A DNA stretch of 64,000 nt from an uncultured Bacteroides sp. (GTDB taxonomy: Bacteria > Bacteroidota > Bacteroidia > Bacteroidales > JACABE01). The notes beneath the pieces are model-generated. The model was given only the letters and a program-made list of their open reading frames with translations, searched no databases and was not told the DNA's origin. Where the stretch lies: assembly GCA_964422385.1 (NCBI GenBank), contig CAYRBL010000001.1, forward strand, positions 19,999 to 83,998, in the 5' to 3' direction. Positions 10,566 to 64,000 of the stretch are shown here, one piece after another (the first letter of the stretch is position 1; every line of letters begins with the position of its first letter). Made by a program: the position numbers and the translations under genes.

Positions 10566-10566
10566 C

Positions 10567-16984: not shown

Positions 16985-16996
16985 ATTTAAACTAAT

Positions 16997-17665
16997 ATGA
17001 TAAATAAACTAGCATCAGCAATATACAATGATATAGTTTCTGGTCTTGCCGGGATTACATCAACACCATCAATATCACTTGACCAATTAGAAGATGATAT
17101 TGTTGACGAAAGACTTCAGATAATAAAGGAATATGCTGCAAAGAATTTAGTTCCTAGAAACGATTTATTGATGTCAATAAATTGCATTCAGTTAGATTGT
17201 CTATCATTAGACAAATGTCCATGCGGAGATAAAACATATTCCAAACCACAATTGCATTTTGAATTACCACAAATCGTAAATGATATGGGTGCAGATGCAG
17301 TCGAATTTATTGGTGCAGTAGACAGAGAAGTATTCTTTAAAGTTTACACAAACACCTCATATCAATTTCACAAATATTTAAAACGTGGGGCACAACGTCC
17401 TTTCGTTTATATTGAACCCACTCCTAATACAAATAACATGTATGATGCATGGGTATTCGGAGCACCATTATTAAAAACTCTTACAGTAATTGCAATCTTT
17501 AAAGATCCAAGACAATTAATGCAATATGATTGCTGCGCAGGAGATGATATCGAAAATTATTCTTTTATCTCTGCTGAAATTAAAAAACGCCTTACTGAAA
17601 AGAAAATAAGATATTACCGTAGTTTAGCGGTACAACCAACGCCAAATAATCAAGCCCCAAAATAA
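16997..17665 (+). CDS. head/neck-module hypothetical protein (222 aa)
   Basis: Track ORF, no TGA. TAA overlaps the ATG of the next gene. Confidence 0.65.
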   Translation: MINKLASAIYNDIVSGLAGITSTPSISLDQLEDDIVDERLQIIKEYAAKNLVPRNDLLMSINCIQLDCLSLDKCPCGDKTYSKPQLHFELPQIVNDMGADAVEFIGAVDREVFFKVYTNTSYQFHKYLKRGAQRPFVYIEPTPNTNNMYDAWVFGAPLLKTLTVIAIFKDPRQLMQYDCCAGDDIENYSFISAEIKKRLTEKKIRYYRSLAVQPTPNNQAPK

Positions 17666-30209: not shown

Positions 30210-30788
30210 ATGAAAGAAGCGAATATCAGTATAGGCTCTAAAAAATATACAGTGACCCTTGCGGAAACTGATGAAGAAAGAGAACAAGGTTTACAAGGAA
30301 TGACAGAACTTCCGGAAGATGAAGGGATGTTATTTATTCTTGAGGAGCCTGTAGAAATCTCTTTCTGAATGAAAGATACTTTAATTCCTTTAGATATCAT
30401 TTTTATAGATGAAGAGATGACTGTTATTGCAGTCCATCAAGGAGTTCCGGATTCAGAGGAATATATTACAGAAGATAATACAGCTTTTGTATTAGAGGTA
30501 AACGAAGGTTCTGGGATTGAGCCTGGGGATGAACTAGAGTTCGAGCCAGAAGAAGAGATAAATAAAAGTAAAATGCATGTGTTAGATGCTGATGGAAATC
30601 CGCAGATGGAGTTAGAGGGTGGTGAGAGAATCTTTAGTAGAGCTCACACTAAGACTTTAATTAAGTTTGCAAAGAAAGCAGCAGCCACACAGAATGATAA
30701 TGATTATAAAGCATTAGGAAAACGAGTGTTTAAATTTCTACAGGTTCAATCAGAAACAGAAGCTGAATACGTAAAAAGTAAAAAATAA
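30210..30788 (+). CDS. DUF192 (COG1430) family protein (192 aa with TGA=Trp)
   Basis: ATG 30210, same phase as track ORF 30369-30788. Motif ERE.GL.G...LPEDEGMLF......ISF-W-MKDTLIPLDIIFID, with the family-conserved Trp encoded by TGA 30366-30368. Confidence 0.7.
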
Positions 30789-38584: not shown

Positions 38585-38601
38585 ACACATTATAATATAA
38601 T

Positions 38602-41600
38602 ATGGAAATAAACAAACCAAATGATATTTTAGTAGCAACATTAAACAGTCCTAATGCAACCGCTTATGATTTAATGTCGAATAATATACTTGGAAATAAT
38701 ACTTCTTTCTATTCGAAAGACGAATACAAGAAGTCAAAGTATGTACAAGACGCATTTAAAAAAGAAGATGGTAAATTTGATGATGTAGCTTTTGAAGGTG
38801 CTTATAAAGTGGCACAAGACAAATATACTCAATTGACAAATGATCAATATTTGAAAGGGTTGGACAAAATGGTGTACAGCCCTTTCGATATTACCCGTCC
38901 AAAGGATGCAAAGACATTTAATGTAGGTACTATATATAGCAGAGACATCAATCCGTTTAAAGAATTAAAAGGTTGAACTGGGGTTAATAGTGTAAATGAA
39001 AGTCCACTTACACTGAGAGAGTTAGCACAACAGAGCAAAGTTTTCGATCCAGAAACAAATACTTGGTCAGACAAGTCTTTAAACGATTTAAGTATCATAG
39101 ATAAAGTTTTTGGACAAACTCTTGTGTATGCCCAATGGGATACTGATGGGACTCATATAGATTTAGCTTCTGGGCAAACAGTAAAGCATAAAAAAGGAGA
39201 TTGGAAAATAAATGAAGAAGGTAATTTATATACTGAGAAATTAGGTAAGAGAGAAATTTATGGAAAACAAGTTGTAAATCCAACTGATATTCTTACTACT
39301 GATGGCTCTTTATTTAATAAGTTCGACTTCTTTGATTCTGATGATAGACAAAAATCTATTGCAGGCACAACCTTTAAATTAGCTTCACAAATAGCTCCTT
39401 ATTTAATTCCTGGATTTAATACTTATTATGGTGGAGTAACTGCTGCTATAGGTTTAGCGTCCGTATTACCAACTTTTTATAAAGCATTTGAAGGGATGTT
39501 AATTGGAGACAATAAAACATCTTTAACTGATGCTGCAACTTCCGCTGAAAGTTATTTAGCAAAATATAATCAGATGTCTATATCTGATGAATCACAAGGA
39601 TCTATGTTCAATTATGAGCAAATAGGCCAAATGGTTACACAAGTGTTCTCACAAATCTATCAACAAAGAGCCGCTGCTAGTTTATCTAACATTTTTTATA
39701 ATCCAAAAAATGCAGTAATTGATAAAAAGATTGCCGAATTAACAGAAGGAGTTAATAATGAATTTATTAAAAATTCCTTTAAAACAGCTGGTAAATTAAG
39801 TGATGAAAGTCTTACTAGTATTCATGCCAATATTATGGAGAAAATTCCTGGCTTAAAGGAATTATACGAAGACCAATCTAAAATGGCTAAAGCTTTAAAC
39901 TTAGGTTATATGGCATTGGTAACAACTAATGATATTTATGGCGAAGCTCTACAATCAGGATACGATAGAAGAACTGCAGGTTTTGCTGCTCTTGGTGCTG
40001 CTGCAGGACAATATGGTATTATGATGAATAACAGAATGGGTGACTGGTTCTTAGACAAAACTACTGGATATACTTTAGAATCAAATAGAGCCATGACTAA
40101 ATTGGCTGTTAAAGATTACTTAGATCCTATTAAAGAAGCATTCTCTAAAAAATCATCTACGGAAACTAAACAAGCATTAGGTGGTATCTTTGGTAAAATG
40201 AAAGAATCGTTTGTTGATATTTTTACAAGTCCAACAGTCTTAGGAGAAAACTTATTTAAACATTCTATTATTGAGGGTGTTGAAGAGGTAACTGAACAAG
40301 CAGTTTTGGATACAACTAAAGGCATGATTGATGTTATGGGTTATTTAGGTCTTACAAAAGGTAAAGGATCTTTTGGTGGATTTAGTAATGTGTTTAGTCA
40401 AAGTGGTTTAGAAAATTATATCTCTAACTTAGTTGGTGGTATGATTGGCGGTCCAATGTTTGAATTAAATACAACCAAATTAGAACCATTTATTAATCAT
40501 AGAATTCTTGGGAAAGAAGCTGTTACCCCAGAAGTAAGAAAATCAATGTACCAATTAATTGCTAATGGTCAAGGCCAAGATGTAATTGATGAATTAAATA
40601 AACAACGCAAATATCTCGGTAATGAATTTATAACTGTTCCAGACTCTAACGATGATACTGCAGATGCTGAAACAAGTAAATCTCGTTCACAAGCTGATGT
40701 GATTACTGATAATGCAATACAAATGGTAAGAAATATTGAAAGTATTTTACATACAGAAAATCTTGCCTATACAAATGAAGAAATTATTAAAAAAGCTTTT
40801 GTTGACCAATTGTTAATTGACAGTTTAAATAAAGCTAAAGGAGATTCTAAGGTAGGGATTGAAGGATTAGTATTAAGTGACTATACTGAAAACTTGGATA
40901 AACTAATGTTACTTCAATCTGAAATTCAATCATTATCAAAAGATGATGAATCTGCAGCAGCAAACAAAGCTGAGATTACACGATTAAAAGATGAAGCTAA
41001 AATCTATAAGGATAAATTACAAAATATTTTAGATGGTAAAGAAGCTGAGAATTACTTTAGTCAAGCCATGTTTTATTTATCTAAACCAATTAGCGAAAAG
41101 TACTTAGCTATTGATAGGGAAACTTATGCTAAAACAAAATATAATAAAAGTTATTACGACTTACCAGAAGATGGTGTTGGACTAACTAAAAAACGTCTTA
41201 ACGAAGAGTGGACAAAATACCAAGAAAACAAAGATATTAGAAAAGATCTTGAGGTTGCAACTAAGGTATATTTAGAAACTGAAAAATTATCAAACCCATA
41301 TATTGCAAAATATATAGAGTCTGGTTATAGTGAAGAAAGACGTAAGACAATTAAAAACCTTTTAAATTTATCTGGGACATTAAGTATATTTGATACGCAA
41401 GGGACAAATAAAAATATTGCAGTAAATAACTTTATTGCCGTAGCTAAAGAACTTGAACAACGTACAGGTAAAAAAATTATTCCTTGGGATGTAGTTAAAA
41501 CACAGTTCTATGACCACTTATTAAGCAATGGGTATATTATTGATGGTAGTACTGGTAAACCTATAGAAGACTCTTATCTTGAACAAGAAGTGGATGTTAA

Positions 41601-44600
41601 TGGACAAAAAATATCAAGAAAAGATTTACTTGGTGATTTTATTAACCAGACATTACAATTACTTCCTGCTGATAATATTGATATTAACTTATTATCAAGA
41701 CTTGTTTCACAACGTGTTGAAGAAGTAAATAAAGGGATAAATACTAATATTGAAGAACTTACTAAGCAAAAAGAGGATTTATTAGCAACTATGACTCCTG
41801 ATAACTCTGCTGATTTACAAGCTGAAATTAGTAAAATTGATGATAAGATTAATGAAGCTAAAGCTAAAACTTTAGACATTAGAGTTATTGGAAGTTATGC
41901 TGAAACTCAAGGACAACAAGCTAAATTAAAAATTGCGGCTGATGATTATATTACTAAAGTTGAAAATGAGAAATTAGAAGCTCAAAAAGAATTTTCTGAT
42001 AACTTATTAATAAACGGACAGACGTATGACCCTACCAGAATTCGTTCTGATATTCAAGAATTAATTGATAAGAAAGATGTTGGAACAACTGGTAAACCTA
42101 AAGCTCGTAAAGACACTGATAAACTTAAAGACATCGCTGAATATATTAGACAAACTCCTATTTATAATTATGAGTTACTTGAAAATATAATTAAAGGTGC
42201 TGGTACAGCTAAGAATAAAATTCAACAAATTACTAAGTTATTAGACGAAAGTAAAAAAGATTGGATCAAATTCTTATCTCTTAAAAATAAATATGAAGCA
42301 GCTAAGAATACTATTCTTGGAGAGAAATCTTCTGTTGAAGGAACAAATCACTTATGGGATGCAGTAATTCAAGAAGTTAAAAATGGTAACTTAGATGGTG
42401 AACTATTAGATTTCTTTAAAACTGCCTATAATGAAGGTATGGTTGAATTACAAAAGAATGATCCAAATCAAATCTTTTCAAGAGATGAACTTGCAGAAAT
42501 GCTGACATTGGATAAGAAAAGTCAAAGGGCATTTGAAGAATTTATGACTATGTTTGACCAACACATCAACCCAACATTATTACCTGATGGAAGTATAGAC
42601 CCTGCTTATGAAGTAACTAGGGATGAAGTTTTAAAACAAGTACAAGCTATTGGTAATGAAATCTTAAGAGATAAAGTTGGAGATATTCTTAAAAATGTAA
42701 CAGATCTTGAAGTTGCTGAAAAACCGTTGATGGCATTGGAGAGAGCGGTTGATAAGATTTCTAGATTTGTAAAAGCTAATCCACAATTAGTTACTCAAAT
42801 GTTAAAATCAAAAGAGCTACTTGATGATTCTGAAAAACATATTTCTAACTCAATATACGATTTATTAAAAGAATTTGATGTATATTTGTCGGATAATTTA
42901 AAACTCAGACAAAAGAAACTATTTGACATTTTAAAAGCCGAAGAATTCTCTTTAACTAAAGTTGCAGACATAACTAATTATTTATCTGATGGAGTTAACG
43001 TTGGAGATTTAAAACAAGCTATGGACACAATTAGTATGATTCAAGCTGCGGTTTATGCTATGAGTACAACTCAAGTTGGCTATGAAGATCCTCATGGATT
43101 TATTGCTACAAGACAACAGTTTGCTCAATCTAACAAAATCGCATCAGATGTACTTAATTTAAAGACTATTTCGTCTGATGAGGCCACATTAATGTTACAA
43201 GACTTAGAAAGAATTAGTAATAAACTAGGCTTCTTAAGAAATGTACTATTAAGTAATGCTGGACAGTTATTCACTGAACAAGAAAATATTAGAACAAAAA
43301 CAAATAAACTATTCGTAAACGCCTGGCAAGACCTTATGAATAGAAATATAACAGCAGCAGGAAATCCTATTATTAAGGATATTGCTGACGCTATTAAAAA
43401 TGAAAATATTACTGATGAGGAAAAACTCTTAGCAATAGAAAAACAATTCTATGATTTAAACAAATCATTATCACAGGAAGATAAGAAATCCTTATTAAGA
43501 GATTTAAAAGCTGCTTATCCATCTACTAATGAGGCTACAAGTATTTATCAATCTGACGGATCTGATGAAATTACTAAAAACATTACAGAGTTGAGCAACA
43601 ATGACTTCTTGTTATATCTAGCTGCTAATTTAACAGTAAATCCAAAAGACTTTAGTATTAGAATGCATGATATTTTGAAAACTCCAGAGTTTGATAAATC
43701 TCCGTTCTTTACCCAAGAATTAGGAATTAGAATTGCTTATGCATCTATTGTTAATTCAGATTTATTTTCAGTAATTGCAGAAACAAATGATCCTCTTACT
43801 ATTAAAACCCAGCATATTACTTACCTTTTAGGAGATGGTGGCACTGGTAAAACAACAGTAGGATTTAAAGTTTTAACTCTGTTATTACAAAATAATAATC
43901 CTAACTTAAAGATTTGGTTTGCCGCACCACACCAAGACCAAGCAGTAAAACTTCATGATGAAGTTCTTTCTAATGTGGATGATTCCAAATTTAATAAACA
44001 AGTTTACAACAAGAAAGCTTTATTTGATGCTTTAGGTTTAGGAGAAATGTATGAAAAGATTACTAACTTAGACAATAAAGCAATCTTTTTTGATAAAGAC
44101 CAAGGTGGTAGATTAGTTGTTGATAAAGAACAATTTAAAGATATTCCACTAATTGAGAACTTACCTGATGTTGTATTCATTGATGAGGTAACTCACTTTG
44201 GTGCACATGAAGTATTCTTATTAAATGAATTAGTTGCTAAAGCTAAAGACGCTGGTAAGACAATTAAAATTTTAGGAGCAGGTGATACATCACAAAAAGG
44301 ATTTGAGATTGAAGGTATATCTTCAAATGTAGACCAAGTCTCAGGTATCTTTACGCCACGTCTATCTTTAACAGTAAGAGCACTTAATAGTCAAAAAAGA
44401 AAAAATAATGAATCTATTGCCGAGATAACTAAACGAACAAGACAAGTTTGGTCATCAGGTAAAGATGATAAAAAAGTATTAGATTTAATTGGTTCTGGTT
44501 TACGTTTAGCCTATAATCATGATGCTAATACATTAAATGGAGATTTCTTAACTTCAGATGCTGCAATTCCAGAGACAATCTTTGAAACATTAGCAAATAG

Positions 44601-47463
44601 AATTAAAGAAGATCCAAATACAAAAATTGCTATATTAAGCACAACCTCTGAATTGCCAGCAGCTTGGACTGCAGATTTCACTAAGTATGGAATTACTGAA
44701 GCCAATTATAAAGTGTATACACCTAATAATATACAGGGTGCTGAAGGGGATTACTTTATGTTTAATCTATCTGCAATCAATGAAAATTCAACAATAGCTT
44801 CTAAATTACGCTCATTATATACTTATGTAACAAGAGCAAAATATGGAACTGTTATTGTTAATGATGCTCCAAATGTTTTACCTTTCTCTTTATTAAGAGA
44901 GCGGGAAGAATATACTCAATGGATTACTCCACTAAGACCTGAAGTTGTAATGGAGAATAAAGCTCATAGAGTAGAAGTCTTAAAAGGTTTAATAGGTGAT
45001 TCAAAAATTGAAGATGATTACTTCAAATTTGAAACTCCAGGAGTAGTTGAGGATCCAGAGAATATTATACAAGATAACTTATTAACAGGTGATGCAGAAC
45101 CAGAGCCAGATATTAAGAATGCTAAAATCATAACTCAATTAGAAAATGGTAACAAACCTGATAATGGTAAATTTATGATTCATTCTTTCTATAATGACTT
45201 AAATGCACAAGTTGTTAAAAAAGGTAATGTATATGATATAGTTAAAAATCCAGGAAGTTTCTATGGTCTTGAAGCCTCAGGACTTTCAGAAAGTGAAAGA
45301 GATGCTTTAATTGATGAACATATAGCTCTAAAATACCATATCCTAAATAACAAAGGTCATTTAGAGGAATTTGCTGTTAACAATGAAACTGTAGCTAAAA
45401 ATGCGAAAGGTGAATTTGTAGTTAGAAAAAGTTCATTCAATGAAGATTATAACCAACCATATTTAAAATTATATGGTGATACAAGCAAAACTTTAAAGAA
45501 CGGTCAAGTATTTACTAATCTATTCTATAAAGTAAAAGCTAAATCTGGCAATGATGTATATGTACATTTAGCAACTTTCCCTACATTAGATACAGTAGAA
45601 AAAAGTATTGTAGGTGGAAAAACATCAAAAATGTATAAAGATTTCCAAAACTTTACATCTGGAACTAAAGAAGAATTTGTAATTGATAAAAATAAGTTTC
45701 AAGTACATACTTCAACTAGATTAGTTCCTTGGGAAAAAGCAGGAGCTGCAAGAAAGCAATTTACTTTGGAAGAGCTTTCTACATTACCAGGTATAAGATT
45801 TCTAGATATCACAAATGGTTCATTTAGTAAAGAACCTGTTTATCATTTATTTCCAAATGATGCAACTAATAAAGAAGCATTTAAAGAATATTATCGCAGA
45901 ACAACATTTGGCGAGCCTATTACTGAAGAAGATTTAGAGAAATTATTTGATAAATATAAAGGTAAGGTATTCGTTGCTTTATCGTTTATGGAGCAGGGCT
46001 TTAATAAAGGTACTAATAAAAATAGCCAAGTTCAATTAGTTGCACTGAAAAGTGGAACTCGGACATTAGATGAAGTTAGACAAATTATTACAGGTGGGAC
46101 TAAAGAACAGCCTAAGAGTATTCGTACAATGATTCTTGACAAAGGAAACATTGACGAAAAGAACTGGGCAGAAGCGAAGAAAAACTCCTTGTTTAATGCT
46201 AACCAAGTTTTAGATATGTTAATTGAGCTAGCAGTTAAAAATCCTGAGCTTTACAACTCATTAATAGTTGAGAATGAAAAGAAACTAAATACTTTAAGCG
46301 CAGATAAGACATTATCGTCTGATACTCAATTTAAAGAATTCTTACAAGAATATGATACTGTTGTCAAATCAGCAGTTAGTAAAATTGCAGGAAATAGTAT
46401 TATTGATAGAATTGCTTATGGTAATGAAGCTTTAAAATCTGTTTATAGATTAATAGGTAATAAAGTTGCAGAAGCCCAAAAAACTAAAAAACCACTAGAT
46501 AAAGCGCAATTAAGACAAGCTTTGATTAGTGATATTAAAGGTAATAGAGAAGGTAAATGATTCCATAATTTCTGGAATATATTTGAGTTACATACACAAT
46601 TAACCAGACTTTCAGAAAATCCAAAAACATTAGCTCCTATTAAAGAATTTGCAGATAATACTTTAGACACATTAAATGCTATCTTTAAATTATGAGATAC
46701 TGCTTTACAAAGTTCAGGTGGAGTTTATTATAACTTACCTATTCGTGGGCAAAAAGGTGTTAAAGGAGTATTCACAATTGACCAAGCTGCCAACGAAGAT
46801 AATCTTAAAAATTTATATATTGATATGGCTCCAGAGGGTCCTTATTTCTTATTTGAAACAGACTTCTCAGAACCAGCATCAGTAAGCTCTAAACCAGCAC
46901 CCACACCTCCAGCACCTAGCCCAGCGCCAGCGACAACGCCCGCTGCACCTACTGCTCCAGTTGTAACACAGACTGCAGGCGATCTTAAAGCAATGAATGC
47001 TGCACATCCAAATTATTCTCCTATTATGGATATTTCTACTTCAAATTTAAATAAACAAAAAGTAATAGCAGAAACATTAAGTGCCATTCAAAACCATTTA
47101 AATGACGCCACATCAGATGACGATTTCACATTAGTTACTAATTTAAAAAATGCATTTGAAAAGACTAAAACTCTTATTGATGAAAAAACAAACAAAGATG
47201 CTCACATGGTCTTAAATAAATTAATTGATCTGTTTAGTGCAGAACCAGCTGATTTAAGCCAAGAACATGTAGCTTTATTTAGAGAATTAACTCCAAATAA
47301 TGTGTATCAAATGTTGTTTAAAGATTCATTACAAGCCGGAGCTTTTGATTTGAATAATGCAAAAGATTTATTAGATAGCTATATTATGGATAACTTTATA
47401 ACAAATCCGAGTCTTTTAGGTACTCTTATGGGATTACCTGAAACATTCACAACTAAGTGCTAA
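38602..47463 (+). CDS. giant protein 1 (2953 aa with TGA=Trp) with hydrophobic N-terminal region, coiled coils and an embedded SF1 helicase-like ATPase core
   Basis: Merges 38602-38976, 39124-46560 and 46825-47463 (phase 1) through TGA 38974, 46558 and 46693, verified codon by codon. SF1 motifs in order: GDGGTGKTT (43831-43857), VVFIDEVTHF, GAGDTSQKG, IQGAEGDYFMF, YTYVTRAKYGTVIV (to approx 44862). Confidence 0.75.
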
Positions 47464-47468
47464 CACAT

Positions 47469-53400: not shown

Positions 53401-56400
53401 TTAATAATTTACTAAGGTCATTTGATTCTGATATTAAAGGCATTGTTCCAGTAATGAATAATGTCTGAGAAGCAGAAAATACTAAACCAATAGATTTTAA
53501 TTACGAAACTTTGCGTAACTTTAAAAAATATTCAGGATTTATAGACGATAGAATGACGGCTTATGACCAAAACTTCCTAGAAAATAAGTTAGACCAAATC
53601 TTAGACCAAGTATCTAATCGAACTTATATATCATGGGAAAAATCACATGAGTTTGTTGTTGCTCGTATTCCTGCTCAATCTATGCAATCTTTCATGGAAA
53701 TGAAAAATGTAGGATATTTTGACACTGACTCAAATGAAGCATATGTATCTGTATGGCAAATCTTTATTCAAGGTTCCGACTTTGATATTGATAAGGCTTA
53801 TATTATGGGACATGGTTTTAATAAAGCTGGTCATTATGAAACTGCTAATGATATTTTCGATTTCCATAGTAAAGAAGCGTTAGATATTATTGAGCAAATG
53901 CCTATACCTAGTGATATAGAAATTAAAGAAGTTGAACCTGGCAAGAATATTACAGACATTTCAAATGAATTTACTCAATTTGTTAAAACAAATGGTTTAG
54001 ATAATTTCGAAGATACATCTAAATTCACACCAGAAACATTGCAATTAATTAGTAATGTATTAAATAAAATTCTAAAGAAAACTAACGTATCAATAAATTA
54101 TAAAGCAACTGAAGGAGAAACAATAACTCCAGAAATGCAAGTTGAATTTGATACTTATAAACAAGCTTTCTTAAATTTATTAAATAAATACAATACTTCT
54201 AAGAGATATGCTGATAAGAAATTCTCTATTCCAAACTCGGTTGTAGCTGGAATTAAACAGATTATTTCTTCACCAACAAATCAAATATTTGCAAATAAAC
54301 CAGTGGATATTGGTCCGTTACATGCTGGAGCTGATGCAGCTTTTAGATTGAAACAAGATAGAATTAAAACTTTAAGTGATGCATTGCTAGCTGAAGCTGT
54401 TGATAAAGAATTAACTGAAGAATACAAAAATACCATTGAAGCTATTTATAAACTTAACTTAGTTAATACTTCTAAAATTAAAACTGTAAAAGAAGGTGTT
54501 GCTGAAGCAAAACGTATTGATAAACTAAGAAATACTTTATCTGCACATGACGTTTTAAGTTTCTTCAAACAACAACAAGATGCTTCGGTTGGTAAGACTG
54601 ACGTAGGTATTGGAGCAAATGGTTTGAAAGTAATGTTCGCTTTAGCTAATTATTACAACGACTATTATAAATCTTTATATCATGAAGAAGCTACTGATAA
54701 CACAGGAGTTACTTTAGATATCTTAAAAGATAAAACAGGTAAACAAGTGGACTTTAATACTGATCCAAAATGGTTTAAGAAAACCTTTAATATGGGGGAA
54801 CCATTAGGAACTGTAATTAAAACTACAATTGCCGACGTAAATATAACACAAGACTTAATTGACCAAATTGTTTCAAACTACGGTTTGCATGATTTAGAAA
54901 GTCAATTACAAATTATCTTAGATGGAGAAGCCGCATTACATGCATCTGGTATGGTATCTGGTGCTACAGATAATGCGAAAGAGTTAATTATGGCTAAGAT
55001 TAATGCTATTGAAGATTTAACATCAATGCACTTGTATATGATGACTTTAGGGTTTACATCACAAGAAGTAGCGATGTATATGAACTCCGATTTAGCAACT
55101 CATTTAGTAGACAAAATTAATTCTACAAATATATTTGGAGGAAAAACTGATGTATTTATTGCATCAGAAATTCAAAAATATGCAAAAGAAAATCCATCTC
55201 AACAATCAGTTGCAGAGACATTTTTAGATATTTATGAGGGTAGTAAAGAAATGGCTAACCTAGCAGGTATTTTAAAAATTAATCAAAGAACTAGTGCAGA
55301 TATTGAAAGTTTATTCCTATACTTAAGTAAAATTAATAAAGCTATGTACTTAAGAGAAGATGATGTTCTTGGAAAAAGTTTAATAGGATTACAAAATGGA
55401 AAAGATATAAATAAACTAGTAAAAGAAATTCAAAAAGCTCATCCAAATACTTTATCAGAAGAATACATTAAAGATGTTTTACAAAGAGCTTCTGACATCG
55501 AAGTAGAATTTATTAACAGTAAAGGCTTAACTGAGAAGAAAAGAGTATCAATGATAGGAGGACAATTTGATGTTCGCTATTATGTTTATCCTGGAAAAAT
55601 AAACGATACTTATAGAAAATTAGCTACAGAATATTATAACTTATTTAAAAATACTATTAACGTATTTGACGTAATTGATAACTCTGTTCATTTTAAAGCA
55701 ATGATTGAAGGATTGAGTGCAACTCATAATAAATCGTTGATTACTTCTAAAAAGTATAATTTCATATTTAACACAGCAATAGATGTTATTCGTGAAAAAT
55801 CAGCAGCCTTATTCTTAAATAATAATAAAGAAAAAGGTGGAAATATTAAGACATTCTTAGGAAATCCTGCATTATTTATTGATACTTCTGAAAGGGAAGT
55901 TAATAGATTATTAAGAGGTTACGATGGCTTCTTAATTGGCCACTGGTTAAAACAAGAAGATACTAATCACTTTAAGTTTAATGTTAAAGCTTTATTAAAT
56001 CAAGCAGGAGAAAAGTCAATTGAAATGTTTACTGATAACTCAGCAAAAACAATTGCTTATGGAAAAACAAATCCTCATACTGTTAAGATAACTACAGACT
56101 CTGATGATTTCGTAGTAGATTTAACAACTGACTATGGTATTGCAAACTTTAAAAGAATAATGGAGAATTTAATTCTTCCTATTTTACAAAGTTCAAAAAA
56201 GTCAGGACTTGGAGAAATGTTTAGATTAAAATCTGTAAAAAATCCATTTGGTATTTATACTTCTCAAATTGTTTCAGTATTTGGATTAAGTTCCTTAGAC
56301 TCCGAAGTAAATCTTGCTAAGTATCAAGAAATCTTAAATCATTTCAATGAAGTAGACTACAAAGTTGAACATGAAAAACGGATTACCAATAACGATAATA

Positions 56401-56876
56401 AAATCATTCCTTATCAAGATTTATTATATATGTACAATTTAATTGTAAATAATGAAGCTTATGGGGATAATAGATTAACAGCCTTGCTACAAGACTATAT
56501 GAAAGATCCTACTTCAATTGCCTATAAATATTTGAACTATTCACGGGAAGTTGACTTAAGACATAAAGATATATTTGAAATAAATGTAGACCCAACTATT
56601 AAAAATGGTAATGAAAAAGTAACAGTATTAGACAAACTGCAAGACAGTCAAAAGAATGATATTGTATTCTTAGCATTACAGAATAAAGGGTTCTTAAATA
56701 TGAAACGTCTTAATGACCATAAAGTAAGAGGAATTAGCTTAGAGAATTCCGATTTCATTATTAATACATTTATGGATGTTACTGAAAATAAAGATATCAA
56801 AAAATACGAACAGTTCATGTCTCTACTATCATTAGTGAGAGACTCTAACTTACTAATACACTTTAAATGCGATTAA
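47469..56876 (+). CDS. giant protein 2 (approx 3135 aa with TGA=Trp): putative virion RNA polymerase with beta-prime-like DPBB catalytic motif
   Basis: Merges 47457-47987, 48225-51188, 51312-52742, 52896-53468 and 53511-56876 (phase 0) through TGA 47985, 51186, 52740 and 53466. VVARIPAQSMQSF...GSDFDIDKAYIMGH (DFDID at 53778-53792) resembles RNAP beta-prime NRaPtLHrlsiqaF...NADFDGDqMavH. Start taken as the first ATG (47469) after the upstream TAA; the track start at 47457 is GTG. Confidence 0.7.
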
Positions 56877-56877
56877 T

Positions 56878-59800
56878 ATGGCATGTTATTATCATTTAAG
56901 ATTACCAGCTGGTGGGGAGATAAGAATCCCCGCCAGTTTCAGTAATTTATCACTTACCGATTCTGAGAACTTAAGAGGGCTTATAGACAACTATAAGAAT
57001 AATAAAGAGGATTCAAAAACCGAATTAATATCTTATATTAAAAATAACACACCTTTAAAAAACCAAGCAATTACGTCTCTTGTAGAGTCAATACCTATTG
57101 ACAATGCACAGATAACAGATGAACATTTAACTAATTTTATAGCAGCTAATAATGAGCAAATTGAAGCTCAAGGAGAGTTTGCAGGTATTGCAGATACTCT
57201 GAGAACAGCTATTTATAAAGATAATAAGATTGAAGCTGTTGATGAAAATGGCGTATGGAAAGAGATGAAGATTGACCAAGTATTAAAAGAATTACAAAAA
57301 CCTATATTTACTAATTACTTTCAAAATATTGATGCTGCCAAAGTATTAAATGGAAAAAGTTATAATAAAACAATTGATGATATTAAGTTTAGGCAGGCTC
57401 AATTAGATTCATTAGGTATTAATTCTGATATATTTAGTGATTTTCAAACAGTACTTTCATATGCATTTCCTAACCAAAAAGGTATTCGAACAGCTAATAA
57501 TTTCTTTAAAACTAAATTTAATTCTAAATCTGGCGTAGGGCAAGATGACTCTGTTTTAATTTATGACAAAGGATTGGAAAATCCATTGATTTTTTATAAT
57601 GAGAATAGTGACTTGTCATTACATTTCGCAGTTTTTAAAATTTTAGGAATTAAAGCCTTAGAAGGCAAAAATGAAAAACTAAAAGAACTTATCGAAGGCT
57701 TCAATAAAGATGCCGGAGAACAAAACCAAATTGATACCAACTTAACTCCAATCGAATTTTTCAATGGTCAGTTGAATGCTGAAAAAGAAAGATTAGATCC
57801 TGAGTTCTATAAGATGCTCAAGTTTAAATATGGAGAAAGGTGGGCTAAAAAAATAATTGACCTAATGGTTGAGGATTTACCAGAAACAGATAAATTAAGA
57901 CTAGGTCGATCACTTACTTCCATTCTAAATTTTATGGATCCTAGTAATATGAGTAAGTTTGATGAAGCAATTCTAAAAACTAAAAATAATACAAAAGAGT
58001 TATATAACGTTAGAATACAAGGAGAACAATTACAAATTCAATCTATCTATCAATTATCATCAAGACAAAATAGACCTTTGCATTATAATTTTGCAGAAGA
58101 AAGTCAATTACTTGCTACTCCTAATGATATTAATAACTTTTTAAATTCTAAAATTAGAAGAAACTTAGACATCATTAAGATTGAAATTGAAGATCCATTA
58201 GATCCTACTAAAAAATATAGCCCTCGTTATATTGTACCTACTTATTGGAGTGTACGAGATAATTCAGTATTTATTAGAGGATGGTATGATAATAATGGAA
58301 CTCTTACAAGATATGAAGGAATGATAAAACCAAACCGTAAGATTACATATTCTACATTTGCATCAGCTGCTAAACCATATGTTTATACAACTGATATTAA
58401 AGCAAAAATTGAAAAGCCATTAATTGTTAAAATTGATACTGAAAATCCATTACCTAATACAGTACTACTTAAGTTAATACAAAGAGGAACATATATAAAG
58501 TATTTGGATAATAAAGGAGTTGAACGTAATGGTAATGTAAAAAATGTATTCCCAGGCGGTGTTAAAATGAATACAGAATATAATAAAACTGGAGCATTTG
58601 AACCAGACGTTAAGCTTTATAATATAAGAGAAATACATACTGATGCTTCATCATTAGAAGCTATTGTACCAGATGCATTACTAAAAAGCGATGCAGATGT
58701 ACAAACATTCTTAATGGGTAAAGCACAAGAAATAATTAAAGGATTAGAAAAATGGGATAGAAATGCACCGGTATCAGAAGATGATTGGGTAGCCATAGAA
58801 TCAAATGGGCAATTAAGATATAATATGGTTATTGGCCAAACTAATAAAAAAGTTTATATCTTTATTCAAACAAGTAAAGGTTCTAGAATTGAAACCATTA
58901 ATAAATCTGAGATTAAAAATGTATATAAACCAAAAGAAAAATTTGACACAAAAATGTTTGCTCAAATTGGATCTTTCTATAACACAGTATTAAATGAACA
59001 CTCAATCCGTGATTATGGTTATTCGGTGTTTACTGATTATGAGAGGGCTATGGATGGGGACTATGTGTGGTCAAAGGAAAACAAAGTTTTATATAAAATA
59101 AGCAATAAAGAAAATAAACAATTAATTAAATTTGCAATAAAAAATGGAGCAGAATCTATTGATTATGTAAGTGAGTTTCCTGTAGATGCAGTGTTTATTA
59201 CTGATAGAAATATTGCTTCAAACAATTTTGCATCAACAATTGAATTTAATAACTTTCATTTATCTACCTTCAGTTTAGATCCTGATAGTAAAGAAAAAAG
59301 AGGATATTTTGTTCCTAAAGATGCAGTACTCAGTTCTGAAATGTTATTACCATCAGGTAACTTAACAGTAGGATTTGTGCATTTTGCTGATTTCAAATAT
59401 GACCCGAATGTTTATAGAGATGCTACTGCGGAAGTAGTTAAGCTTATCAATGAACGTGATGGTAAAAAAGGTAAAGCAGCTAATCCTGACTTAGCAATTT
59501 TCCAAGAGAAAGGTTATATCAAAAGATATGATGCTAATTTATATGGAACACAGTACGATAAAAGTAAAAATAAATTTTTACAACAGGGAGTTTATGTTAC
59601 TTTAGCTAAAGAAGATGGCTCCGCAAGTCATAAGTATAGAGTTGAATCTAGAGATGGTGATAAACTATTATTAGAATACAATACCTATAATAGAAACGGT
59701 AAAGTGTTAACAGTAAATAAATACTTAGATTTATCGAAAGATGAAGGAAGTATTAAAAATTTATATATAATGTTTGGAAATAGCCGTTTAAAAGAATTAC

Positions 59801-60474
59801 AAGCATTAGATACTAAAAATGATGCAGTTAATGAAAAAATGACTAAAACAGAGTTAATGAACAATATAACTGATTCATTTTATCAAATATATAATATTGA
59901 CGTTGCTACAGTTCATTCCGAAGAAAAAGGATTGAAAAAGAGAAAAGCATGGATTGATGCTAGTTCTGGTGGCAATAAAATTGTTATTAATACTAATGTT
60001 CCAGGTTCGGAACAAGAGTTAGTCCATGAGTATTTACACTTATTCTTAATGGGTGCTAAATATAATAATGGAGATGTTTATGAAACATTAATGACTAATT
60101 ATCTTAAATCTAAAGGGGAGTCTACAGAAAATATTAATTTAGAACAAGTCGAAGAAAGATTTGTAAATGAAGTAAATGAATTGATGTGGAAAGATCCTGA
60201 GAAATTAATATCTATTGACGTAAAATCTTTCACTGCTATGTTTGATAGAATAATGAAAGATTTAAAAGTTATTGAAGAGGATGATGAAACTTTCTCTCCT
60301 GAACGTGGTTCTTTTGAATCGGTATTTAACATTTTAAATTATAAAATGGAAGATATTTTTAAGGGAGAAACTTCTAGAAAATCTAAAACTAACTTACTCT
60401 ACTATGATGCTAACTTCAAAAATTGGCTAAATGATCAGATTGATAATAATAACTTACTAATAAATTGCAGATAA
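56878..60474 (+). CDS. giant protein 3 (1198 aa) with C-terminal HExxH (zincin-like) motif
   Basis: Track ORF with no TGA. SEQELVHEYLHLFLMG, with HEYLH at 60025-60039. Start is 1 nt after the upstream TAA. Confidence 0.7.
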   Translation: MACYYHLRLPAGGEIRIPASFSNLSLTDSENLRGLIDNYKNNKEDSKTELISYIKNNTPLKNQAITSLVESIPIDNAQITDEHLTNFIAANNEQIEAQGEFAGIADTLRTAIYKDNKIEAVDENGVWKEMKIDQVLKELQKPIFTNYFQNIDAAKVLNGKSYNKTIDDIKFRQAQLDSLGINSDIFSDFQTVLSYAFPNQKGIRTANNFFKTKFNSKSGVGQDDSVLIYDKGLENPLIFYNENSDLSLHFAVFKILGIKALEGKNEKLKELIEGFNKDAGEQNQIDTNLTPIEFFNGQLNAEKERLDPEFYKMLKFKYGERWAKKIIDLMVEDLPETDKLRLGRSLTSILNFMDPSNMSKFDEAILKTKNNTKELYNVRIQGEQLQIQSIYQLSSRQNRPLHYNFAEESQLLATPNDINNFLNSKIRRNLDIIKIEIEDPLDPTKKYSPRYIVPTYWSVRDNSVFIRGWYDNNGTLTRYEGMIKPNRKITYSTFASAAKPYVYTTDIKAKIEKPLIVKIDTENPLPNTVLLKLIQRGTYIKYLDNKGVERNGNVKNVFPGGVKMNTEYNKTGAFEPDVKLYNIREIHTDASSLEAIVPDALLKSDADVQTFLMGKAQEIIKGLEKWDRNAPVSEDDWVAIESNGQLRYNMVIGQTNKKVYIFIQTSKGSRIETINKSEIKNVYKPKEKFDTKMFAQIGSFYNTVLNEHSIRDYGYSVFTDYERAMDGDYVWSKENKVLYKISNKENKQLIKFAIKNGAESIDYVSEFPVDAVFITDRNIASNNFASTIEFNNFHLSTFSLDPDSKEKRGYFVPKDAVLSSEMLLPSGNLTVGFVHFADFKYDPNVYRDATAEVVKLINERDGKKGKAANPDLAIFQEKGYIKRYDANLYGTQYDKSKNKFLQQGVYVTLAKEDGSASHKYRVESRDGDKLLLEYNTYNRNGKVLTVNKYLDLSKDEGSIKNLYIMFGNSRLKELQALDTKNDAVNEKMTKTELMNNITDSFYQIYNIDVATVHSEEKGLKKRKAWIDASSGGNKIVINTNVPGSEQELVHEYLHLFLMGAKYNNGDVYETLMTNYLKSKGESTENINLEQVEERFVNEVNELMWKDPEKLISIDVKSFTAMFDRIMKDLKVIEEDDETFSPERGSFESVFNILNYKMEDIFKGETSRKSKTNLLYYDANFKNWLNDQIDNNNLLINCR

Positions 60475-60475
60475 T

Positions 60476-63400
60476 ATGAGCTGTACATATGAATTAAAAG
60501 ATGGCGACAAAACAGTCGTAAAAGATTCTATTTTAGAATTATCACAACACTATTATCGAGCAGGAGTTAAATTAGCTAATCAAAAGATTTTTAGTACTGA
60601 AGAAATAGTTGATAGTGTGAGAAAACCGTTGCTTGAAATAGCATCGAGAAAAGATAGTATAAGAAGTAACGCAGCAACAACTGGTGTTGTTACATTTATA
60701 TCACAAGTTAATACTAGTATTTTTAAAAGTAAAGGTATTAACAAAGACCGATTAGTTCCTGAGTATAATGAGGACAATCGTATATTAAATTTTATCTTAG
60801 ATAAAATGCCTGCAACATTAAGGAACTCAGTAACTAAGTTAGAAAATTTACAAGATATTGTAAATAAAGATAGTACACTTACTGATACATATACTGAGAG
60901 ATTGAAGGAAATTAAAGATATTATTGAATCTGAAAAATTAACTAATCAATTAGGTATTGATATCCATAATGGGTTAGACTTATTATTAAGAAGCCAAAGT
61001 GGTACTAAAGGAGAAGATATATCTCAAATTGTAGACAGAATTGTAGACAAGAATGCAGATATTCTTGATAATCCAGACCAATGGAAAATTCGTTTAAAAG
61101 ATGTCCTTGGAAAAGTTTTCAGTGAAATTAGTACTATTATTAAAGATGGTGGTACAATATTATCTGAGTTAGATATTGATACAATGGAAGACTTAGAGGG
61201 AACTCATGCTAAAGATGCAGCAGTTAAGTTAAAAGGACGTATTGACCTTGTAGCTATTGACCGAGAAGGAAATGTTCATATTTATGATGTTAAGGTTTCT
61301 AAGAACCCTTATGATGAATGGGATCAAGTAAAAAGTTATAGTACTGATTGGCAGTTAGCTTTTTATCGTGGTTTACTTGGACAGTATATTGATGTTAAAG
61401 GTGCGACCCTTAATGTTATACCAATTAGCACTGGCTCTGTAGTTACTGACGAAAATGGACGTAAACAAGTATTACACAATAACTTAAAATATGATAAACA
61501 AGTCAATCTACTTCAAAATCCAAATAAAGGGTTAAGAGAAAATGGTGCTTTATGGAATGTAGTAGCTGCCCTTATTCCACAGAAAACAATTATTGATTAT
61601 GACCCAGAAAGACAAAAAGAGTTTGAGCAAGAATTAAAGCAGTTACTTCCAAACTATGAAATCAAAACGAGTAACTTAGAATATAATCCTCAAAAAATTG
61701 TAGAAGCTGCTAGAAGAAGTGGAACATTTGACTTATTCAATAGTTTTGATGACACATTAACTGGAGAATTAGTAACTCAACTTTCATCCTTAGGATTTAC
61801 TCAAGATTCTAATTCAAGAATTTTTAAATATAAATGGGAACCAGGAACTTCAAGTGCTGAAAAAGAAGCTAAGTTTGCGGAAGCAGTACAAGTATATACT
61901 GACTTTGCTAAAGCTAATAAGAACAATAACTTAGTGAGTTTGAAGAACTCTGTTATTTCAGCAGTAAATAGTGGAGCTTTAACAGTAAGCTGGCATAATA
62001 ATAAAATTGAGGATACTTTAAATAGTTTATTAAAACAATTTTTATTAGGAAATCATCGTGTTATAACTCGAATACCAGAACTTGATAAATTAGGCTTTAT
62101 TTTATTTCAAAATAAAGAAAATAATAAATATTCATTATTAAGTGTTAGTGCATTTACCGCTAACGCATCATATGAAAATAACCTATTATATGGTGAACTA
62201 GAATATTTAAAAGCGTATGCCTTTTTAAATAAATTTCATAAAGAATTAGATTTAAAGAGAAATAAAGTTGAAGCTGTGAGTGTATTTAATTTACAAGAAG
62301 GTGTTCCATTTTATAGACCACTTGATGCCATGTTTGAGAAATTCAAAAATCGAATGGAAGGGATGGGAATGCAAATGAATATTCAAGCACATGAAGTCTT
62401 ACCAAAAGATGAAGAAGTTGCTAGAGATATTTTTAGAAATTCATTAAGAACATATTCTAAAGAAGATAAAGATGCAGTGTTAGAAACATTAGCCCCTATA
62501 CTTAATCAGTTCACTGATGTATCTGGAGAACAATTAATTGATATTCAAAGAAAACTAAGAGAGAAATGGCACTTAGAAGAGAGAACACTTGACAAGTTAT
62601 CTTATGATAATGAACGTGAGTATTTATATGCTTTAATAAGTTCTATGATTGTATTAAAAAGTGCTTTAGTTCCATATGGAGACTTTATGGATATGAAGAA
62701 TTTTGGTATTGCATTTTCGGATTTTAAATCTATTGTTAATAGTTTATGGACAGACAAAGTTGAAGCTTATGATAGAACTGGAAAAGCAATTCAAGGTATT
62801 ATTGGTGGGTTAAAAACAATTACTCCTGATAAAGTAAACTCTATTGACTTACGTAATATCAATATGTTACTTAATAGTGCGAACTCATTTGTTCGTCAAG
62901 ATTTCTATAAACAATCTACTATTATTGGTTCTCTAACAAGAGAATACTTTAAAAAGATTCATTATAGTCCTACTGAACAAAATTGGATTGGTAATTATAG
63001 AGGTAAATATGAGAATATGTGGGTTAGAGAAAATGGCTCAATTTCTAATATTTGGTCAGTTAAAAATCCATATGCATTTGATGCATCTAATGGTTTAACA
63101 GCCCCTGAAAGAGAACATCTAAGAAAGATGTTATTTGAAATCAAGAAATACGAACTTGGTATTACTGAGAAAGAAAATGTAAATATTGATACTTTAGAAA
63201 CTTTATCTAAATCAAAAAGTGGTTTAAAAATCTTAGCCGCTATTGAAAACGGAAACTATTTCAAAATGCCATTGGTTAAGAATCAACAAATTACAAGAGC
63301 TGGAACTCTATGGAAAGATGGATTTAAAGGATTTGCTGATGCTGCAAAAGAAGTAGGACAAGAGGTTCAAGATTTCTTTGACTCTCGTGAACTTAGAGAA

Positions 63401-64000
63401 GAAGAAAGGATTAACTTAAAGAAAACACAACTTGGTTATTATGAAATGTACGATATATATGGTTTACAATCCGATTCATTCAAAAAGGATATGGTTGATA
63501 AGCATGGAGATATTGAATTTGAATTAAGTTTAGATATCATTGCACATAAATCCGCATTTAATAAAATTCGACAAGACCACATGAATAGAGTATTACCTAT
63601 TGTAAACTCATATATGTGGTGGATGAAATTAAGAGCTGGTGTATCTAACAAAGATATTTCTAAGGAATTAGACTATGTAGTTAATAGAATTAACTTAGCT
63701 GCTTACGATGCTCCTATTGTGAATGAAGAAGCAGAAGATGTTATTAAAGCTGTTTCAGTTGCAAAACGTATTACTACGATGGGTATGTTAGCATTTAGAC
63801 CTGTGCTTTTATTTAAAGAATTAACAATTGGTTTATATAAAGGTATCGCTTTAGCATCAACTAAAATTTATGGTAAACAACAATTTAGTTTAAAATCATA
63901 TACTAAAGCGGTTAAATCTTTAATTACTGTAGATAATAAATTCGGCCCAGAGTGGAACTTACTTGACGCAGTTAATAATTTTTATGGGTTTGCTAACCGT
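60476..64000 (+). CDS. giant protein 4, N-terminal 1175 codons (continues past window end), with PD-(D/E)xK nuclease-like motifs
   Basis: ATG 60476 lies 1 nt after TAA. I read phase 2 codon by codon to 64000 and found no TAA, TAG or TGA. It is absent from the ORF track because it has no stop inside the window. GRIDLVAIDREGNVHIYDVKVSK ... QLAFY at 61235-61366. Confidence 0.8.
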   Translation, partial: MSCTYELKDGDKTVVKDSILELSQHYYRAGVKLANQKIFSTEEIVDSVRKPLLEIASRKDSIRSNAATTGVVTFISQVNTSIFKSKGINKDRLVPEYNEDNRILNFILDKMPATLRNSVTKLENLQDIVNKDSTLTDTYTERLKEIKDIIESEKLTNQLGIDIHNGLDLLLRSQSGTKGEDISQIVDRIVDKNADILDNPDQWKIRLKDVLGKVFSEISTIIKDGGTILSELDIDTMEDLEGTHAKDAAVKLKGRIDLVAIDREGNVHIYDVKVSKNPYDEWDQVKSYSTDWQLAFYRGLLGQYIDVKGATLNVIPISTGSVVTDENGRKQVLHNNLKYDKQVNLLQNPNKGLRENGALWNVVAALIPQKTIIDYDPERQKEFEQELKQLLPNYEIKTSNLEYNPQKIVEAARRSGTFDLFNSFDDTLTGELVTQLSSLGFTQDSNSRIFKYKWEPGTSSAEKEAKFAEAVQVYTDFAKANKNNNLVSLKNSVISAVNSGALTVSWHNNKIEDTLNSLLKQFLLGNHRVITRIPELDKLGFILFQNKENNKYSLLSVSAFTANASYENNLLYGELEYLKAYAFLNKFHKELDLKRNKVEAVSVFNLQEGVPFYRPLDAMFEKFKNRMEGMGMQMNIQAHEVLPKDEEVARDIFRNSLRTYSKEDKDAVLETLAPILNQFTDVSGEQLIDIQRKLREKWHLEERTLDKLSYDNEREYLYALISSMIVLKSALVPYGDFMDMKNFGIAFSDFKSIVNSLWTDKVEAYDRTGKAIQGIIGGLKTITPDKVNSIDLRNINMLLNSANSFVRQDFYKQSTIIGSLTREYFKKIHYSPTEQNWIGNYRGKYENMWVRENGSISNIWSVKNPYAFDASNGLTAPEREHLRKMLFEIKKYELGITEKENVNIDTLETLSKSKSGLKILAAIENGNYFKMPLVKNQQITRAGTLWKDGFKGFADAAKEVGQEVQDFFDSRELREEERINLKKTQLGYYEMYDIYGLQSDSFKKDMVDKHGDIEFELSLDIIAHKSAFNKIRQDHMNRVLPIVNSYMWWMKLRAGVSNKDISKELDYVVNRINLAAYDAPIVNEEAEDVIKAVSVAKRITTMGMLAFRPVLLFKELTIGLYKGIALASTKIYGKQQFSLKSYTKAVKSLITVDNKFGPEWNLLDAVNNFYGFANR

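Follow-up and report, generated by a model that had tools for sequence, protein, structure and literature searches.

A block of four giant genes, with TGA read as tryptophan, that is probably the transcription gene block of a deeply divergent crAss-like phage

The stretch of 64,000 nucleotides analysed here (hereafter the window), taken from contig CAYRBL010000001.1 of an assembly assigned to an uncultured Bacteroides sp., corresponds to ~68.2-132.2 kb of the source contig (ENA ERZ4223863 NODE_25, 163,047 bp). From position 38602 onwards it encodes four co-directional and tightly abutted giant genes, G1 to G4, which are the last genes of a late/structural operon (Table 1). G4 runs over the end of the window, is 1575 amino acids (aa) long on the source contig and ends at window-equivalent position 65203; downstream of it, on the opposite strand, are encoded a glucosaminidase, a dGTP diphosphohydrolase and Thy1. 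In brief, G1 carries a superfamily 1 (SF1) helicase core, G2 is a homologue of the two-barrel virion RNA polymerase (RNAP) of crAss-like phages, G3 has a zincin-like site and G4 a PD-(D/E)xK nuclease domain. Very probably, the region is a transcription gene block (virion cargo block) from a crAss-like phage that is deeply divergent and in which TGA codes for tryptophan.

Under the standard code, the block is split into the open reading frames (ORFs) 38602-38976, 39124-46560, 46825-47463, 47457-47987, 48225-51188, 51312-52742, 52896-53468, 53511-56876 and 56878-60474. When only TAA and TAG are taken as stops, four frames are obtained (38596-47463, with three in-frame TGA; 47457-56876, with four; 56857-60474 and 60464-end, with none). 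A preliminary description of this DNA, made from the sequence and its ORFs, had proposed that read-through of seven TGAs fuses the first eight fragments into two proteins of about 3,000 aa, followed by two further giants with a 1-nt TAA-N-ATG spacing. Both proposals hold: the ORF list is exact, the homologues are single genes, and G2/G3 as well as G3/G4 are separated by TAA-T-ATG, the spacing at G1/G2 being TAA-CACAT-ATG. G2 most likely starts at the ATG at 47469, judging from the N-terminus (MITC...) common to its homologues, which gives 3135 aa.

The reading of TGA was assessed by codon-level alignment with relatives that carry the same block at loci designated L001, L002 and so on. TGG codons of the window are opposite TGA codons of L001 at 39 of 58 positions, and TGA codons of the window are opposite TGG at two sites, one in L002 (G1 aa 2653) and one in L005 (G2 aa 1240). 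Furthermore, conservation is unbroken over every TGA in the alignments of G1 and G2, including the 49 codons that separate the TGA at 38974 from the next start at 39124. Because TGA and TGG interchange at aligned tryptophan positions, TGA is, on the evidence of these alignments, a tryptophan codon in the window.

The assignment of G2 relies on profile and structure comparisons with the virion RNAP gp66 of Cellulophaga phage phi14:2, whose gp66, gp65 and gp67 correspond to GenBank gp077, gp076 and gp078 (PDB 6VR4). An hhalign comparison of 21 G2-family sequences with seven virion RNAP cores from Crassvirales and Fpv2 gave an alignment over 919 columns (Prob 99.0, E 6.5e-18). Its columns of maximal confidence oppose ARIPAQ...GSDFDIDK of G2 to RIPNQ...GSDFDIDK of gp077, and also include GK..VGI.ANG and DNAK; the R, I, P and Q of the barrel motif and its three Asp are invariant in the 21 sequences. 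In gp66, the DFDID motif occupies residues 1361-1365, the bridge helix residues 1529-1559 and the trigger loop residues 1598-1636 (Drobysheva et al., bioRxiv 10.1101/2020.03.07.982082). The last two elements contain the gp077 sequences GGKSGVGITANML and NAFVDNAKDPYINDGN, which in the hhalign alignment are opposite VGKTDVGIGANGLKV and SGATDNAKELIMAKINA of G2, respectively. DFDID and the bridge-helix and trigger-loop counterparts are all invariant or nearly so in the G2 family. An AlphaFold2 model of G2 aa 2001-3135 (1135 aa), built from a 21-sequence alignment, has a predicted local distance difference test score (pLDDT) of 74.6. When this model was compared by Foldseek with 350,542 PDB chains, the only match at E<=1e-3 was 6vr4_A, the phi14:2 virion RNAP gp66 (E 7.8e-5, prob 1.00), with bacterial beta' chains next (E 0.2-4). 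Taken together, alignment and model indicate that G2 is a homologue of gp66, and gp66-type virion polymerases extend well beyond what BLAST or HMMER can reach from Crassvirales.

In a further hhalign alignment (Prob 82), some stretches of which are of high confidence, G2 aa ~1266-1345 and 1405-1472 lie opposite phi14:2 gp077 ~1049-1260, which delimits a candidate first, beta-like double-psi beta-barrel. Between the two barrels, G2 contains an insertion relative to gp66, which is its least conserved part. In the closest homologue of G2 (P0001, encoded at L001 10001-19597), aa 1623-1742 of this insertion match ART-PolyVal (PF18760) below threshold (E 2.1e-5, 25.7 bits against a cutoff of 31.2), while the window's G2 has unrelated sequence at the same place. 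The insertion is variable among relatives and may carry different domains.

The other three giants also carry recognisable enzymatic cores. In G1, the SF1 motifs I, II, III, V and VI occur in order and are conserved in L001 and L002. The Pfam matches of G1 itself are below the curated cutoffs (AAA_30, E 7.4e-5, 23.0 bits against a cutoff of 27; AAA_12, E 1.9e-3), and many G1 homologues have precomputed matches to PF13604/PF13245 (AAA_30/AAA_19); a weak hhalign match (Prob 62) was also obtained with the helicase part of cr118_1 gp14. The motif series identifies an SF1 helicase core in G1. The N-terminal ~620 aa of G1 are, according to the conservation profile, the best-conserved part of the whole block, and hhalign found no match of this module to Crassvirales proteins. 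G1 retrieved 684 protein clusters at E<=1e-3, many of which match just the first ~31-37% of the protein.

In G3, the residues H1050, E1051, H1054, Y1068, E1092 and E1093 are invariant in 35 relatives. An AlphaFold2 model of the C-terminal module (pLDDT 84) shows three strands and, after them, three helices, of which the first bears HExxH and the third EE. In BFVD, the best match of this model, and the sole viral structure at E<=1e-3 (8.6e-4), is fragment 2 of cr273_1 gp35, which has HEAWH. The comparison of G3 with the zincin regions of crAss-like phages by hhalign is weak (Prob 4-5), yet registered on HExxH and EEF. No match was found in Pfam for four G3-family C-termini, nor in a PDB profile search with the 35-sequence alignment, and Foldseek of the model against PDB returned nothing at E<=1e-3 (small beta-barrels at E~5e-3, the metalloprotease MATCAP at E 0.17). 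Judged from the invariant residues and their order, G3 has a zincin-like HExxH...EE site.

The nuclease domain of G4 is matched by PF12705 (E 3.1e-13, 50.7 bits against a cutoff of 22). Its IDLVAID and YDVK motifs are kept in relatives, and PF12705 also matches the G4 homologues in L001, L002, L013 and L015. PHROGs, searched with all four giants, gave just two marginal matches, both to G4. The part of G4 that lies outside the window has a hydrophobic stretch, LADSALMMLVFGMVAAMIQGF (seen in L013, 13599-18326), which could be a membrane segment. The helicase, two-barrel DFDID, HExxH and PD-(D/E)xK signatures that the preliminary description had read from the letters are all upheld by these searches, as is the likeness of the block to that of the virion RNAP in crAss-like phages, for which the homology of G2 with gp66, the position at the end of the operon and the convergence on opposite-strand genes all speak.

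Table 1. Features of the giant-gene block (positions in the window)
Feature	Position	Strand	Remarks
G1	38602..47463	+	2953 aa; first giant; three in-frame TGA (Trp)
G1 N-terminal conserved module	38602..40461	+	aa 1-620; KPNDI aa 5-9, GYDRRTAGFAAL, GQYGIMMNN, DWFLDKTTGY, glycine-rich stretches
In-frame TGA, G1 aa 125	38974..38976	+	TGA/W in L001; Arg or Tyr in others
SF1 (RecD/AAA_30-type) helicase core	43789..44871	+	G1 aa ~1730-2090
Helicase Walker A GDGGTGKT	43831-43854	+	
Helicase motif II VVFIDEV	44170-44190	+	
Helicase motif III GAGDTSQ	44275-44295	+	
Helicase motif V IQGAEGD	44731-44751	+	
Helicase motif VI YVTRAK	44824-44841	+	
In-frame TGA, G1 aa 2653	46558..46560	+	opposite TGG (Trp) in L002, TGA in L001
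In-frame TGA, G1 aa 2698	46693..46695	+	opposite W (TGA) in L001 and L002
G1/G2 junction	47458..47480	+	G1 last codon Cys 47458-47460, TAA, 5 nt, ATG; G2 Cys4 47478-47480
G2	47469..56876	+	3135 aa (most likely start); four in-frame TGA
In-frame TGA, G2 aa 173	47985..47987	+	W in closest homologue P0001
In-frame TGA, G2 aa 1240	51186..51188	+	W invariant in six homologues; TGG in L005
Candidate first double-psi beta-barrel (beta-like)	51264..51503	+	aa ~1266-1345; KSGATNV, GIQLDAGH, TQLISAL
PFSN...RYYPGTGAILAPS, after candidate first barrel	51813-51851	+	
Inter-barrel insertion relative to gp66	51906..53618	+	~530-580 aa
In-frame TGA, G2 aa 1758	52740..52742	+	W invariant in six homologues
In-frame TGA, G2 aa 2000	53466..53468	+	variable position
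Second double-psi beta-barrel (beta'-like)	53634..53843	+	ARIPAQSMQSFM (53661-53696); DFDID 53778-53792, aa 2104-2108
Bridge-helix and trigger-loop counterparts	54546..55058	+	VGKTDVGIGANGLKV 54588-54632; SGATDNAKELIMAKINA 54957-55007
G2/G3 junction	56868..56886	+	G2 Cys3134 56868-56870, Asp, TAA, T, ATG; G3 Cys3 56884-56886
G3	56878..60474	+	1198 aa; no TGA
G3 C-terminal zincin-like module	59278..60471	+	HEYLH 60025-60039 (aa 1050-1054); Y1068; EE aa 1092-1093
VEERFV, enclosing EE of G3	60148-60165	+	
G3/G4 junction	60466..60484	+	G3 Cys1197 60466-60468, Arg, TAA, T, ATG; G4 Cys3 60482-60484
G4	60476..64000	+	cut by window end at aa 1174; no TGA
PD-(D/E)xK nuclease domain	60890..61447	+	G4 aa 139-324; IDLVAID 61241-61261; YDVKVSK 61283-61303

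The four giants share an unusual distribution of cysteine, with seven Cys in 8,861 residues. Indeed, (i) the single Cys of G1 is its last residue, (ii) G2 has Cys solely at aa 4 and aa 3134, (iii) G3 solely at aa 3 and aa 1197, and (iv) full-length G4 solely at aa 3 and aa 1202. Cysteine makes up 0.079% of the giants against 0.58% of the other 24 ORFs of the window (binomial P ~1e-14), and six of the seven Cys fall within four residues of a terminus, in the six junction-terminal windows (P ~3e-14). The same census was obtained in L001, L002 and L005. At the family level, Cys is found at the C-terminus of 109 of 114 G1 proteins and at the N-terminus of none of them; in the G2 family at the C-terminus of all 20 proteins and at the N-terminus of 18, the two exceptions being attributable to wrong start calls (MEC... 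and a GTG-initiated SKC...); and in the G3 family at 29 of 31 N-termini and 30 of 31 C-termini. The proteins at the ends of the block follow the same logic, the first having no N-terminal and the last no C-terminal Cys. Junction-terminal Cys recur in hundreds of relatives, among them L001, L002, L004, L005, L006 and L007-L012, and also in phi14:2, p-crAssphage, Suoliviridae, Fpv2 and crAss001. Where G1 is split, in L006, a new Cys pair is present at the new junction, and in the fused giants of Crassvirales no Cys pair is present at the fused junctions.

The simplest reading of this pattern in the sequences suggests a thiol-based link between consecutive proteins. A cause at the nucleotide level, by translational coupling, was considered and rejected: the distance between Cys and terminus varies, and crAss001 gp47, which ends in ...RCNS, keeps its Cys although its gene is not adjacent to that of gp50. 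The persistence of the pattern without gene adjacency in crAss001 points to a cause at the level of the protein. In crAss001 virions, disulfides are indeed found between structural proteins. The terminal Cys are mentioned neither in the phi14:2 RNAP preprint nor in the crAss001 atlas (Bayfield et al. 2023, PMC10172136), and this trait of the giants is apparently unreported. It is conceivable, and we propose it only tentatively, that in the virion the terminal Cys connect each giant to the next, by disulfides or a shared metal, into a single thread of ~8,900 residues with a fixed order of extrusion. The C-terminus of G1 would be joined to the N-terminus of G2, that of G2 to the N-terminus of G3 and that of G3 to the N-terminus of G4, the thiol link standing in for the peptide bond of the polyproteins fused in other crAss-like phages. 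Such a thread would separate in the reducing cytoplasm or through processing by the G3 peptidase. If this covalent chaining were true, it would answer the question, raised for crAss001, of what sets the order in which cargo proteins leave the virion.

Four more ORFs of the window are free of Cys (31765-36672, 26928-28259, 11238-12224 and 30210-30788) and may code for further ejected cargo proteins. The 1635-aa ORF among them has long Gly/Ala-rich hydrophobic stretches, and a PHROGs search with its C-terminal 967 aa found nothing. Two standard-code ORFs (276 and 330 aa) at 36674-38584 form one 636-aa gene through the TGA at 37502-37504 (aa 277), a position at which three relatives have an invariant Trp (YIW). 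The 636-aa protein is also without Cys, and a homologue of ~600-640 aa precedes G1 in the locus of every relative. Elsewhere in the window, in-frame TGA codons are unevenly distributed: 21 occur in three large Ser/Thr-rich, tail-fibre-like ORFs (1315-9951), and the eight ORFs at 10558-18384, which begin with the endolysin and include the capsid gene, have none.

The block belongs to a lineage of some size. The fused G2 retrieved 23 relatives from 5.8 billion proteins, the best being 56% identical over 100% of the query, and 20 of the 23 are single proteins of 2,962-3,787 aa; the search with G3 retrieved 81 representatives from 1.84 billion proteins. With the 684 clusters of the G1 search, this makes a sizeable lineage in which no listed protein is named in any source. 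The four-gene block recurs in L001 (2938, 3198, 1206 and 1556 aa), L002 (2925, 2962, 1257 and 1568 aa), L005 (2791, 3014, 1075 and 1547 aa), L006 (G1 in two parts of 1566 and 1602 aa, then 3543, 795 and 1581 aa), L015 and L016. No standard-code relative of this lineage was found, and the comparison of ORF boundaries, also proposed with the preliminary description, covers recoded relatives, among which the giants stay single genes with the exception of G1 of L006, whose two parts are still giant genes. Standard-code annotation fragments the largest genes of the lineage, as on the source contig. That contig, at 163 kb, is longer than the contigs of 96-100 kb that bear the same block in L001 and L002, which may reflect a larger genome, a concatemer or an assembly join. 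Downstream of the block in L015 (26946-30175), a sigma-70-family gene (Sigma70_r2/r3/r4) is encoded together with a family-A DNA polymerase called as two pieces.

As for the wider context, the window also encodes an endolysin and a weak match to a major head protein. This capsid protein is 52% identical to those of two unannotated gut phages (MT835470 and MT835492), and the only annotated records that it matches are Crassvirales major capsid proteins ('major head protein'), nine of which are weakly similar to it (23-25% identity, E 2e-6 to 2e-4, over ~45% of the protein). A homing endonuclease of GIY-YIG/HNH type is encoded among the head genes (17665-18384; PHROG 7168, E 3e-12). Four upstream ORFs gave just one weak PHROGs match, to 'virion structural protein', and a megablast of the block against 50,697 phage records gave nothing. 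No excess of promoter-like or terminator-like sites was found within the block.

Several explanations compete with that of a recoded crAss-like transcription block, two of them concerning the code. The seven TGAs could be real stops, the region then consisting of pseudogene fragments or of eight or more smaller proteins. In its public annotation at ENA, the source contig does have separate fragments (212, 172, 987, 476, 190 and 1121 aa), TGA is rare (seven against 33 TGG in G1 and G2, none in G3 or G4), and no tRNA, hence no suppressor, was found in the window. This is nevertheless highly improbable, given that conservation crosses every TGA, including the 49 codons from 38974, that TGA and TGG replace each other in both directions between the window and L001, L002 and L005, that the homologues are single genes of ~3,000 aa with TGA or TAG elsewhere, and that the upstream gene at 36674-38584 behaves alike at its invariant Trp. 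It is less far-fetched, though still unlikely, that the host itself uses genetic code 4, as a Mycoplasmatota-like organism would, with no phage-driven recoding of late genes such as is described for crAss-like and other gut phages. The low G+C content (~30%) and the strong preference for TGA in the closest relatives (66 TGA against seven TGG in the block of L001, and TGA far above TGG also in L002 and L005) would fit such a host, as would the lack of a suppressor tRNA both in the window and in the loci of the four relatives L001, L002, L005 and L006. On the other hand, the tRNA search covered only ~40% of the 163-kb contig, the use of TGA varies along the window (21 in the ORFs at 1.3-10 kb, and not one at 10.5-18.4 kb, in G3 or in G4), and L006, L015 and L016, with the same four-giant block, recode TAG (dozens in frame, up to 114 per gene) and keep TGA as a stop; moreover, Yutin et al. 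(2021, PMC7886860) describe recoding of TAG and of TGA side by side within one group, in crAss-like phages whose hosts use the standard code.

The other alternatives concern function. The giants could mainly be polyvalent injected effectors, of the anti-defence or host-takeover kind described by Iyer et al. (2017, PMC5512222), early transcription not being their main job. Their make-up of helicase, zincin and PD-(D/E)xK modules is typical of such proteins, long stretches have no recognisable domain, and the insertion in the closest relative's G2 has its sub-threshold ART-PolyVal match. We nevertheless regard this as distinctly improbable, since the RNAP core is the best-conserved catalytic core of G2 and early-gene transcription has been demonstrated for the homologous enzyme (Drobysheva et al.); the two readings overlap, however, and are not mutually exclusive. 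Finally, the idea that G2 is a T7-like, single-subunit giant virion RNAP of the N4 type, which only its size recommends (~3,100 aa, against the ~3,500 aa quoted for the N4 enzyme in PMC13434306), is effectively refuted: no N4- or T7-like chain is among the best 50 Foldseek matches in PDB, where gp66 is followed by beta' chains, the DFDID and RIPxQ barrel belongs to two-barrel polymerases, and neither Pfam nor PHROGs gave a T7-like RNAP match.

A number of observations, besides the absence of a suppressor tRNA from the loci searched, weigh against assigning the block to the transcription module of a crAss-like phage. No polymerase match was obtained for G2 in Pfam, PHROGs or a PDB sequence search, nor in a PDB profile search with 12 homologues. 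Its model superposes on 6vr4 with low TM-scores (0.23/0.13), the DFDID barrel is poorly modelled (pLDDT <50), and the first-barrel alignment reaches only Prob 82. Phmmer found nothing between G1-G4 and the block proteins of phi14:2 and Suoliviridae; G1, G3 and G4 match crAss proteins weakly and at their enzymatic cores (hhalign, family profiles against single proteins). In tblastn, the C-terminus of G2 matched only two unannotated gut phages, and gp077 matched 147 crAss records without those two. The domain order is zincin, RNAP and helicase in one chain in Suoliviridae, whereas here it is helicase, RNAP, zincin and nuclease in four. Lastly, it is by analogy that we infer virion packaging, ejection and polymerase activity of the giants.

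In the transcription block of a crAss-like phage, which we retain as the explanation, events could unfold as in phi14:2 and crAss001. The four proteins would be made late and packed into the capsid, to be extruded by way of the tail in partly unfolded form, either before the DNA or together with it. Transcription of the early genes by G2 would follow, and the helicase, nuclease and peptidase modules could have template or host DNA as their target and serve in activation or in passage through the envelope.

Among the closest known systems is the block of phi14:2, whose gp076-078 are annotated as structural proteins verified by mass spectrometry. Both systems combine a giant single-chain two-barrel RNAP bearing DFDID with giant flanking partners, one of which has HExxH, at the end of a structural operon that converges on opposite-strand genes (as in p-crAssphage and cr50_1), and in both Cys is found solely at the junction termini. 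The phi14:2 proteins differ by the absence of BLAST or HMMER similarity to G1-G4, by the standard code and by their number and size (three proteins, 5,398 aa, against four, ~8,860 aa). G2 is ~950 aa longer than its counterpart, with ~530-580 aa in the inter-barrel insertion. No Walker A/SF1 motif and no separate PD-(D/E)xK giant is present in phi14:2, and its HExxH is near the N-terminus of gp076 (aa 245), not near the C-terminus as in G3.

The fused giants of Suoliviridae and relatives that were compared are cr50_1 gp059 (4774 aa), cr118_1 gp14 (4946 aa), cr55_1 (4551+2007 aa), cr273_1 gp35 (5794 aa) and Fpv2 gp33 (4401 aa). They have HExxH and DFDxD in the same block; in cr50_1 and cr118_1, one and the same chain (4,774-4,946 aa) bears HEAFH, DFDID and the Walker A motif of a helicase, and the GenBank records name these proteins 'DNA helicase' or 'exonuclease V'. 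The last protein of cr55_1 has a PD-(D/E)xK-like stretch after HExxH (hhalign Prob 59), a Cys pair is present at the remaining gene junction, and gp35 (5794 aa) and gp36 (2043 aa) of cr273_1 (NC_055904) contain 36 and 12 in-frame standard-code stops, from which that genome appears to be recoded. Outside the catalytic cores, these sequences cannot be aligned with G1-G4. Virions of crAss001 were found to contain gp47, gp49 and gp50 (262, 154 and 277 kDa), for which ejection in a partly unfolded state was proposed (Bayfield et al. 2023). They follow the same terminal-Cys logic, gp50 starting with MSKRC and having a Cys eight residues from its end, and gp49 starting with MAKKC; they differ in that the gene of gp47 lies on the strand opposite to those of gp50 and gp49 and separately from them, that no helicase motif was seen in gp49 or gp50, and that no sequence similarity to G1-G4 is present. 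QDE-1 and the beta/beta' subunits of multisubunit polymerases share with G2 the DxDxD metal site in a double-psi beta-barrel, the bridge helix and the trigger loop, but similarity is marginal (E 0.2-4) and the fourth position of the motif is Ile in G2 and gp66, not Gly. The polyvalent proteins of Iyer et al. are likewise injected and very large, and combine helicase, zincin, nuclease and ART modules in series; here the modules are grouped about a virion RNAP and distributed among four collinear genes, and ART-PolyVal was matched in a relative only, below threshold.

The preliminary description had proposed that the combination of helicase, nuclease and peptidase signatures be checked against what is described for such blocks. 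The combination is not new: together with an RNAP it is already known from Crassvirales transcription blocks, because the Suoliviridae giants hold HExxH, DFDID and a Walker-A helicase, and giant transcription-block proteins of extreme divergence, with TAG/TGA recoding and PDDEXK domains within them, were reported by Yutin et al. (2021). Drobysheva et al. likewise noted that gp65 orthologues have a zincin and that some phages encode the three proteins as one fused polyprotein. What is particular to the present block is the order of the domains, their partition over four genes, the size of ~8,860 aa, the inter-barrel insertion and the absence of sequence-level similarity to Crassvirales. In summary, the block is of a known kind, found here in a lineage that has diverged deeply.

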